Part shown: one piece after another, positions 1,649-4,600 of the stretch | How positions within the stretch are numbered: the first letter of the stretch is position 1 | How the letters are laid out: each line of letters begins with the position of its first letter | Made by a program: the position numbers and the translations under genes | Notes under the pieces: model-generated | The model's input: only the letters and a program-made list of their open reading frames with translations | Databases searched by the model: none | Told to the model about the DNA's origin: nothing | Assembly: GCA_046757025.1 (NCBI GenBank) | Contig: JBHHXN010000109.1 | Location: 1 to 18,194, forward strand | Length of the DNA stretch: 18,194 bases | Direction: 5' to 3' | From: a bacterium | GTDB taxonomy: Bacteria; Zhuqueibacterota; Zhuqueibacteria; Oceanimicrobiales; Oceanimicrobiaceae

Positions 1649-4600
1649 AAGTCTATCTCCCTGCAGCAGATACACATACGCGTCCTCCAGCGTGGGTTCG
1701 ACGGTTTGCGCCTGCAAAGAATCTATGGGCTTTTCACTCAAAAAGCGCATGCGCACGCCTTCATCGGATTTGTTGTGCTGCACCACCTGCAATTGTTTCT
1801 GCCAATTCAAAAACTCATCTTCGGTGACCACGGTTTCAAAAACTTTACCAGCAGCCCGTTTTTGCATGACCTCCGGCGAGCCGCGGTAGATGAGCCGGCC
1901 GCAGTCCAAAACCGCCAGATCGTGGCAGGTGCTGGAGATGTCTTCCACGATGTGCGTGCTGAACAAAACGATGCGTTCTTTCGCCAATTCCGACAGCAGG
2001 TTGCGAAATCGAATGCGCTCCCGGGGATCGAGACCCGCGGTGGGTTCGTCCACGACAATGATCTGCGGCAGATGCAGCAGGGTCTGAGCAATGCCCACCC
2101 GTTGTTTCATGCCGCCGGAAAAGCTTTTTACTTTATCGTGGCGGCGCTGCCAGAGTCCCACGCTTTTCAGGATATTTGCGATGAGCTCGTTGCGGCCTTC
2201 AGGTTCATAAATGCCGTTGGTTAAGGCATGGTAGTTGAGATATTCCAGCGGGGTCATGTTTTCGTACAGGCCAAAATCCTGCGGTAAATAGCCGATGGCG
2301 CCATGAAAGGTCTCGCGGTGTTCAGACAAATTTCGTTCATTAATTTTGACGCTGCCGCGATCGGCATTGAGCACCCCGACTAAAATCCGCATGAGGGTGG
2401 TTTTGCCGGCGCCGTTGGGACCCAGCAAACCGAACATACCCTGCTCGATTTCCAGATCGACACCGTGCAGAGCCACCACTTGTTTTTTAGGCGGCCGAAT
2501 AAATGGAATGTATTTCACCACCGTGTAAATGCCGTGTTTGATCTTTCGAAATCGGCCTTCAGGCAGCTCCGGATCGATCCTGCCCTGCTCGATTTTGCGG
2601 GCAATTTGGGCAAATTTCCACAGCACCAAAATCAATATCACCATGGTGACCGTAAATCCAGGGGTTTCGACCCGAATTTGTAGATAGATCAAAAAAATGA
2701 GGACAAACCAAATAGTGCCGCGCTTTGGAAAATTTAATGGAGAAATATTTGCACTAGTAGTATTGCTCACATCATTATGAGTTGGTTTTTTTCTCTCAAA
2801 CAACTTCAGTCGAAAAGATTTCGATTTTGTGTGAGGCGGCCGGCCAAGCACAAAGCGCCAGCGGTACCAGAGGTCACGCGCAGCAAAGAGCCAGACCATG
2901 CTCAAAATGCTTAGAACGGTAAGCCAGAAGCCATTATCAAAAAATAAGTGCAAATAAATCATCAACACTGCCAGCGCGGTCATCCATATTGTGGCTTCTT
3001 TCAGCCGGGAGCGCGTCCAGGGTAGTCGCCCGGCGCGAACCATTTTCTGCCAGCGCCGATTCTGTTTTTGCCATTCCCGCGTGAAACGTTCGGGCGCGCC
3101 ATAAATTTTCGTAAGATTTTTGATTCGAATGCGCAGTCTTTTTTCAGCGACCTGTCGCTTTTCCTGTCGAATGGTGAAAAAGTGCTGGATTCCAAATATC
3201 AAACCGAGCAGGCTGAACCAGATCGGTAATACGAGCAAGCACGTATAAAGCACACTCTGGTAGCTTTTGTAAAACCAGAACAACAGGGCGGCGGTTATTG
3301 CCGCAGCGGTCAAATTTCCCAGCCAGTCAATTTTCAATAGCCAGTTTTTGGTTTGCTCAAGACCTACGTAGAGCACGGGAATAAAAATCAGCGTTGAAAT
3401 GGAAGACACCGCCAGCCCGCCCAAAACTGTGATAGCAAACGGCGGCCAGAGCTCAAATTCCACGCCTTGTTTCAGCGCCAGCGGAAACAAGCCGAGAATG
3501 GTGGTGGCCGAAGTCATGATGATGGGGCGCACCCGGCTCTGGCCGGCGGCGATAATGGCGCGCTGCCAGCGGTAGTGGTAGCGGTTGCGCAAAATCGCGA
3601 TACGGTCCAACAAAATGATACCGTTGTTGACCACGATGCCCAGCAAAACGATCAATCCCAACAGCGCCATGGGCGCGCCTTCTCCCAGGGAAAGCGGCGT
3701 TCCGCTCAGCGCCAGCGCAAACAAAGCGCCGATGATGGCCGTGGGTACAGTGCCTAAAATGACGAACGGCATGGTGAACGACTCGAATTGCGCAGCCAGA
3801 AACATGTAGATGAGCAGCGCACCAATTCCCAGCATCCAGTAGTAAACCGTCTGTTTGTTTTCAGTTTGCAGCTTTTCCAGAGTCAAACCTTTCGGTAAGC
3901 GTAATTCACTTGTAAATCGTTCGATCTGGGCTTGGGCCAATTCCAGACGCGATTTGGCGTTTTGCGCTTCCGCTATAAATGTATAAGTAATTTTCACCTG
4001 GCGTTCCTGGTTGTACCGAACGATGCTTCCCGGGCCTTCGTCCACACGCACATCCGCGACCTGATTCAGTGGCACGAGCTGACCGGCGTCGTTTCTCACT
4101 TTCATGTTTTCGACGTCTTCGAGCCGTCTGTCGCTGGCATCGGTTAACTGCAAATTCATCTGCACTTCGCGGCCAGCCTCGTTGAACGGCGTGGAGAGGT
4201 TGGCGCCTTCAGCGCGGGTAGCCCAGATAGAATTCATGATTTGCTGCATGCTCAAACCCCATAAAGCCAGCCGCTGACGGTCGCCGCGAATCTGCAGCTC
4301 GGGCGCGCCGCTTTCCAGATTCGCCCTGACGGAATTCTTTTCAATGTCCGGAATCTCCCGCAGAGTTTGCACGATCTGCTCGCTGATCAGGCGCATGGCT
4401 TGAATGTCGCTGCCGCGAAGACGCAGCCCTTCCTCCGAGCTTAAAAACCCTTGCAAATCGTCGTTGCGCTGCCGTCCTCCGCGGCTGACCGGGCGCTCGA
4501 AAGTAAGCGTCGCGTTTTCCAATCGCTCAGCTTGTTTCTGCAAATCCTCTTTGATTTTTTCTTTCTTCAACGGTTGCGTGCGCTTGCCTGGCTCCACAAA

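Follow-up and report, generated by a model that had tools for sequence, protein, structure and literature searches.

The DNA analyzed here, a stretch of 18,194 nucleotides (the window), encodes a fusion of an RND permease with an ABC ATPase, and our data support the view that the nucleotide-binding domain (NBD) of this protein is interrupted, directly after its first strand and A-loop, by 209 residues of membrane type. ABC ATPase domains are usually treated as soluble, with membrane contact only via a permease; here, a membrane domain is predicted inside the fold itself. An initial annotation of this DNA had proposed an insert of about 200 residues that splits the NBD at the A-loop (positions 2471 to 3136); its coordinates match ours, with 209 residues between aa 1098 and aa 1308. 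The further proposal that a membrane-type module lies within the NBD beside the nucleotide site is supported by sequence, model, and hydropathy. Features of the window lie on the (-) strand unless marked otherwise.

The fusion gene (1646 to 6394; 1,582 aa) joins ACR_tran (aa 1 to 1011) to ABC_tran (aa 1309 to 1453). Its first part is a complete RND permease of the AcrB family (aa 1 to 1011; 3362 to 6394) that matches PF00873 over profile positions 1 to 1019 of 1021 (E = 3e-200); every score against the RND subfamily models was below the cutoff. Past the RND region, hydropathy and the structure model predict two extra membrane helices (aa 1024 to 1042 and 1048 to 1070; 3185 to 3325; H14-35 and H38-74 in the model). 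These are followed by strand 1 with the A-loop (aa 1089 to 1098; 3101 to 3130, with Y1098 at 3101 to 3103), by the insert (aa 1099 to 1307; 2474 to 3100), which was delimited by hydropathy, alignment, and a stand-alone model, and by the remainder of the NBD from strand 2 (1649 to 2479), in which Walker A (2399 to 2422), the Q-loop, signature, Walker B, D-loop, and H-loop are intact. Translation of positions 1649 to 6394 (-) gives LRIRIKNLTKIY at aa 1087 to 1098, then 209 residues, then ALHGVDL from aa 1308. The best NCBIfam matches of the NBD are TIGR03522 and TIGR01188, both below the cutoff. An assembly artifact as the source of the fusion was ruled out by the homologues and by a single 4,920-base contig that spans positions 1618 to 6500 without a gap; this contig may itself be the source of the window.

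The assignment of the displaced segment draws on conservation, on a position-specific scoring matrix (PSSM), and on a superposed model. According to excerpts of PMC3971661, the aromatic residue of the A-loop stacks on the adenine of ATP. A search with aa 1012 to 1335 gave 1,464 matches among 4,771 candidates; this query region includes Walker A, and therefore the remaining proteins among the 1,464 need not all hold the insert. From the 120 matches listed, 109 were aligned with the query to give 110 sequences; the self match, close duplicates, partial proteins, and proteins lacking an ABC domain were left out. Among the matches listed, all 110 aligned sequences share L1094, K1096, and Y1098, as well as the catalytic residues of the NBD, and before strand 2 the sole invariant residues are L1094, K1096, Y1098, and P1297; the expected conservation of this segment in homologues was thus borne out. 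The homologues were selected by a region containing the motif, yet the rest of that region is not invariant.

The strand 1 PSSM was derived from the corresponding block in 34 further ABC ATPases of this genome. Among the matches listed, it placed the displaced site above every other 10-mer preceding Walker A in 108 of 110 sequences, with a median score there of 20.65, compared with 15.3 for genuine blocks scored leave-one-out. None of 300 shuffles of aa 1 to 1324 contained a 10-mer reaching the observed score of 25.3. At the usual place of strand 1 in the insert-bearing proteins, the best score had a median of -2.8 and a maximum of 12.6; a substitute strand 1 at the normal position was ruled out by these scores. 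The distance from A-loop to Walker A is 227 residues in the fusion and 186 to 279 across the 110 aligned sequences (among the matches listed), compared with a usual 23 to 39 in the genome's ABC ATPases, of whose 36 Walker A sites 26 matched the pattern. Two insert-bearing queries yielded 160 further loci, 150 of which have the motif, always with Tyr and with a spacing of 181 to 219; of the 10 that lack it, nine are truncated by the start of the contig and one is broken into three frameshifted fragments. In the stand-alone ATPase of the window, by sequence, only five residues (AGGVQ) separate the tyrosine from the alanine of AL, as the initial annotation had described, and the BLASTP alignment of this ATPase with the fusion begins only at ATPase residue 16 (44% identity).

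Within-chain coevolution (373 sequences; Neff, 165) gave weak support to the pairing of strand 1. Pairs fitting the NBD sheet were L1087-I1475 (rank 1), N1093-R1346 (rank 17), R1088-E1317 (rank 37), and R1090-E1315 (rank 515 of 83,071), the list of expected pairs having been written after one of its pairs had surfaced. The other expected strand pairs were flat in this within-chain analysis (K1092-D1313, z = -0.4), and most top pairs look like noise.

Structure prediction agreed with the sequence data. The AlphaFold2 model of aa 1011 to 1582 (110 sequences; pLDDT, 91.6; pTM, 0.81) has strands at aa 1089 to 1098 (pLDDT of about 89 to 96) and 1306 to 1316. In comparisons with solved structures, 49 of the 50 matches listed start at model aa 1084 to 1089, and 47 start at chain residue -1 to 5. 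LptB-ATP (4p33_A) aligns to the model over 230 of 235 residues (rmsd, 2.2) and FtsE (8hd0_A) over 212 of 218 (rmsd, 1.8), leaving so few residues of either protein unaligned that the displaced segment must match their first strand. The pairing of aa 1087 to 1098 into the NBD sheet, as initially proposed, is therefore reproduced by the model, in which the segment forms a strand superposed on strand 1 of solved NBDs; strand 1 is predicted to complete the sheet, and the superposition would place Y1098 at the adenine. In a control model without the NBD (aa 1086 to 1306; pLDDT, 86.5; pTM, 0.74), the strand 1 segment was a coil and the insert was modeled as six main helices, which suggests a helical unit of its own, predicted to lie partly on the cytoplasmic side and partly in the membrane. 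AlphaFold may position strand 1 from learned NBD folds. We consider the structural part of our explanation very probably correct.

Within the insert, a basic amphipathic helix follows directly after the A-loop (aa 1103 to 1120; 3035 to 3088), at the position of the Wzt gate helix, and carries the motif RFxREW, whose R, R, E, and W residues are each conserved at 90% or more. After it come predicted membrane hairpin 1 (aa 1135 to 1152 and 1156 to 1172; 2879 to 2992), a variable basic loop (aa 1173 to 1227; 2714 to 2878) that measures 19 to 107 aa in homologues and is the site of natural gene splits, and predicted membrane hairpin 2 (aa 1228 to 1240, which is short, and 1246 to 1261; 2612 to 2713), both hairpins being based on model and hydropathy. 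A second basic amphipathic helix (aa 1282 to 1295; 2510 to 2551), seen in model and alignment, leads back to strand 2 and contains Y1290, which is kept in 108 of 110 sequences (among the matches listed). The four hydrophobic stretches initially reported are present, the third with only 13 residues, and their mean KD exceeds 1.2 in 90, 96, 84, and 100 of 100 homologues, in order. Lys and Arg together number 20, 13, and 11 in the three long loops versus 1, 0, and 1 in the three short loops, and the insert resembles a pair of membrane hairpins whose inner loops are basic. The initial expectation of an even number of membrane helices also held: hydropathy and charge bias predict four, and the helix parity stays even if the short third stretch is tilted or re-entrant. 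The C terminus of RND permeases is cytoplasmic; together with the predicted hairpin topology, this would put both parts of the NBD on the cytoplasmic side.

The insert is about 160 to 255 aa long across homologues. Conservation of its membrane helices is low (mean column identity in A4, 31%; K, Y, and P alone are invariant), and the near-invariant residues, RFxREW, G1280, Y1290, and P1297, lie in or near the amphipathic helices that adjoin strands 1 and 2. No Pfam family was matched by more than 3 of 100 members, the best match among PDB sequences had an E value of 0.17, and the ESM Atlas gave no usable match; matches to photosystem I (E values of 0.8 to 9) were taken as composition noise. At the profile and sequence level, the insert thus appears to be without a match to a known family, which does not imply a novel fold. 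A distant member, P0147, has a visibly shorter insert without the usual last amphipathic helix and may help to define the minimal module.

In most of the long loci fetched, the fusion belongs to an operon of seven genes in the order ATPase, permease/M1-like fusion, outer-membrane factor, adaptor, RND, RND-ABC, and permease; the first five are inverted in L034 and L035. In the window, these are a stand-alone ABC ATPase without the insert (16828 to 17745), a sister paralogue of the fused NBD by BLASTP and tree; an ABC-2-like permease with an M1-peptidase-like region and Golvesin_C (13417 to 16716; ABC2_membrane_5 and Peptidase_M1 below the cutoff, Golvesin_C above it); a TolC-like outer-membrane factor (11830 to 13356; PF02321); a periplasmic adaptor (MFP; 10696 to 11754; TIGR01730 above the cutoff); a second RND permease (7012 to 10152; Pfam); the fusion; and a 261-aa ABC-2-like permease (814 to 1599). 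Each operon carries two NBDs and two ABC-2-like permeases. The 261-aa permease is the likely partner of the insert-bearing NBD: it is found within 2.6 kb 3' of the NBD gene in 159 of 167 loci, and five of the eight exceptions end within 120 bases. Its own assignment to ABC-2 is weak, PF12679 being weakly matched by 6 of 16 orthologues and not by the permease of the window. In the permease/M1-like fusion (13417 to 16716), no HEXXH motif was seen by eye, and therefore its large outer domain may bind cargo instead of cutting it; the gene is in two pieces in L040.

The proton relay of AcrB consists of Asp-Asp in TM4 and Lys in TM10. In the fused RND, TM4 has Asp-Asn in 170 of 195 sequences and TM10 has Asn-Asn in 181 of 195, so that its relay is not of the AcrB type; the Arg/Thr motif of TM11 is present in 195 of 195. 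The operon's other RND, which is without any NBD, likewise has Asp-Asn in TM4 and no Lys in TM10.

The RND-ABC fusion is genuine and long established. In 122 of the 126 loci that are not cut by a contig start, strand 1 is preceded by more than 900 open codons, and records of KSB1 type and of Calditrichota, Gemmatimonadota, Latescibacterota, and Bacteroidota retain the insert. Cultured species are included; Prolixibacter bellariivorans, Marinifilum fragile, Draconibacterium mangrovi, and Bacteroides faecis all carry the fused form. Within the phylum, the insert profile was matched in 75 of 167 genomes, nearly always once. In a quick tree with an outgroup from one genome only, 20 insert-bearing NBDs and 15 operon ATPases formed sister groups relative to 33 other ATPases of the genome (joint support, 100; each group, 94), which points to an old duplication after which one copy gained the insert.

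The initial annotation had taken the insertion as an argument for an evolved RND fusion. This argument fails, because the same insert is found in stand-alone ATPases of 483 aa, and the insert is therefore part of the ATPase, independent of the fusion. These RND-free forms were found by profile search; a single-query search (314 to 1001 aa) gave six proteins and missed them. They occur in three 90% clusters, are about 80 to 89% alike, and start 14 residues before strand 1, which runs from residue 15 with no helix ahead of it; the insert and all motifs are kept. In L051, the only RND-free case with DNA context, the RND ends after the two extra helices and is followed by a 215-base gap, the 483-aa gene, and the permease. 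The two extra helices thus stay with the RND where the ATPase is a separate gene, and the loss of the covalent link in this locus indicates that a tether need not be covalent.

A different division is seen in G160, G163, and G147, where the gene is cut in the variable loop of the insert to give two genes: strand 1 and hairpin 1 end the RND gene, and hairpin 2 and the remaining NBD form a new one. Ten C-half proteins (372 to 386 aa, several of them identical) have every catalytic motif and no strand 1. Strand 1 is kept in eight N-halves, three from these genomes and five without DNA context; in a quick tree of 49 rows, the N-halves fall in two clades interspersed with fused forms, requiring at least five changes. 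Between the split halves of G160 and G163, dN/dS is 0.09 to 0.12, which may reflect the time before the splits, and some split forms may be assembly errors or decaying genes. According to excerpts of PMC2217481, CFTR cut between strands 1 and 2 (residues 1 to 414 plus 433 to 1480) still forms working channels; this cut is at the same junction and makes completion of the ATP site in trans plausible for the split forms.

Several observations bear on how such divisions look at the DNA level. The pieces of G147 lie on three contigs (RND half, L031 7931 to 11647; NBD half, L032 9280 to 10461; permease, L214 8041 to 8838), each an intact open reading frame amid unrelated genes, and represent an operon that either still works in dispersed form or was disrupted recently. 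In L031, the truncated RND gene is followed at 4384 to 7571 by a protein of SIR2 type and a short prokaryotic Argonaute (class I matches in PADLOC), and insertion of this island may have caused the split. Inverted repeats occur in the gaps at split points in L051 (5508 to 5722; -64.4 kcal/mol) and L033 (5051 to 5211; -42.6), both energies being without a shuffle control, and the gaps give the impression that loops tolerant of insertion had received small palindromic elements. P0041 stops at a position that is Tyr in its close relative P0025, which reads on to a Met matching the start of the free C-halves; from this comparison, a one-base change may suffice to turn the split state into the fused state or the reverse. 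A 2,434-base contig of G140 (L050) carries a second RND end that is truncated and almost identical to the one in G147; G140 has its own fused gene, and this end, which may be bin contamination, was left out of the split count.

The site of the insertion is a known one. Excerpts of PMC6379404 describe the connection between strands 1 and 2 of Wzt as a gate helix that packs on the transmembrane domain and is displaced by about 8 Å when ATP binds, while Tyr11 stacks on the adenine, and excerpts of PMC7078476 place the gate loop of TarH at the same site, reaching toward the membrane domain. The insert resembles these elements in its location between strands 1 and 2, immediately C-terminal to the tyrosine that stacks on adenine, and in starting with a basic helix. 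Unlike those of Wzt and TarH, which are short, cytosolic, and part of glycan exporters, it has 209 residues and four predicted membrane helices, belongs to a DrrA/GldA-like ATPase, and is encoded in an RND operon with no glycan genes within the window. The regulatory insertion of CFTR NBD1 (residues 404 to 435) also lies between strands 1 and 2, and the working cut CFTR parallels the natural splits; it is about 30 aa long, soluble, mobile, and phosphorylated, whereas the insert described here is about 200 aa long, of membrane type, and predicted to be ordered. DrrA/GldA-type ATPases share the full set of catalytic motifs and the ABC-2-like permeases alongside, but their strand 1 lies about 23 residues before Walker A, with no membrane segment, compared with 227 residues and usually an RND fusion here.

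At the level of the operon, mycobacterial lipid export by MmpL7 and DrrABC likewise sets an RND-superfamily protein alongside an ABC-2-type exporter; these are separate proteins and are not known to have an NBD insert or a TolC channel. Pumps of the MdtABC-TolC type share two RND genes, one adaptor, and one outer-membrane factor; to our knowledge, MdtABC is without ABC parts. The RND paralogues of MdtABC-type pumps form a heterotrimer, as given in excerpts of PMC8277102. No published RND-ABC fusion or NBD membrane insert was found in the titles and abstract openings of the openly licensed PubMed Central and bioRxiv papers listed. The insert would thus occupy a known insertion site, that of the gate helix and the regulatory insertion, and be new in its size and predicted membrane character.

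We postulate, at what we judge to be about even chances, that the insert serves as an enlarged gate element and links the ABC-2 exporter of the operon with the RND pump. It can be envisioned that the insert-bearing NBD pairs with its sister ATPase beneath the two ABC-2-like permeases to form one asymmetric exporter. The strand 1-2 connection of Wzt and of TarH is on the membrane-facing side of the NBD, adjacent to the permease; by analogy, the insert helices would pack there, move when ATP closes the NBDs, and keep the exporter beside the RND-MFP-TolC channel, so that cargo could be handed on. The operon's ABC-2 permease is the likelier partner of the insert, over the RND; coevolution between insert and permease did not exceed that obtained when the pairing was shuffled (top z, 11.4 and 9.9 versus 9.8 and 9.5; Neff, 63). 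A more ambitious version, which we think rather unlikely, would make the insert a membrane lever on the adenine-stacking loop: ATP would move the lever against permease and RND, mechanically joining the ABC exporter and the RND-TolC pump, and in split forms the RND-borne strand would complete the ATP site in trans. If this were true, ATP turnover would be conditional on RND docking.

An alternative explanation is that the insert is a passive anchor that merely fixes the distance and angle of the NBD so that an RND-borne ATPase reaches the permease, with no gating or motion. Low conservation of the membrane helices, a loop that ranges from 19 to 107 aa, tolerance of chain cuts at two places, and the almost normal behavior, in excerpts of PMC2217481, of CFTR channels without most of the insertion at this site all fit this explanation. 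Against it stand the retention of the insert in RND-free ATPases about 80 to 89% alike and the near-invariant RFxREW, G1280, Y1290, and P1297 of the two amphipathic helices, and we regard it as a credible candidate that is nevertheless less probable than the gate element. Direct ATP input into the RND, with the insert and the two extra helices driving its membrane domain in a two-energy-source pump or an ATP-gated RND, is favored by the fact that fusion is the rule (122 of 126 uncut loci) and by the absence of an AcrB-type proton relay from the fused RND. However, the NBD-less RND of the operon shows the same TM4 Asp-Asn and absence of a TM10 Lys, two ABC-2-like permeases and the sister ATPase are co-conserved, and the extra helices remain on the RND when the ATPase separates; such direct input is accordingly quite improbable in our estimate.

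The position of the insert directly after the adenine-stacking tyrosine, and its presence on only one of the two NBD types, would also suit a regulatory sensor that responds to lipid, membrane state, or a partner and, through a pull on the A-loop, adjusts nucleotide binding. Sensing appears very improbable, given that the module matches no known sensor family, that it is predicted to be well folded, not mobile, and that the CFTR insertion proved nonessential for regulation in excerpts of PMC2217481. Least probable of all, and in our view scarcely plausible, is that the upstream segment is vestigial or swapped between subunits, with another residue, such as Y1290, on the adenine. Y1290, shared by 108 of 110 sequences among the matches listed, is located 35 residues N-terminal to Walker A, split forms without strand 1 hold all catalytic motifs, and within-chain coevolution is weak; against this, the L, K, and Y residues are invariant, Y1290 is in a predicted amphipathic helix, the model puts the segment in register with solved NBDs, and the split N-halves retain strand 1. 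The enlarged gate element remains our preferred reading; in this system, cooperation between an ABC exporter and an RND pump can be addressed at a defined site, and its natural RND-free and split forms are small, ready-made constructs.

Many-copy short repeats lie between operon genes of the window at 1600 to 1650, 10155 to 10695, and 17750 to 18194 (41, 29, and 71 blastn matches in the genome, respectively); Rfam had no match in the window or at the split loci. Facing the end of the operon is a 93-aa open reading frame (268 to 549, + strand), rich in Cys, Gly, and Tyr and with a signal-like N terminus, which had no Pfam or NCBIfam match, is single copy, and was unmatched in the 20 loci compared. 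In the Bacteroides faecis-like gut loci L100, L192, L197, L199, L202, and L206, a further adaptor and RND gene directly follow the permease.
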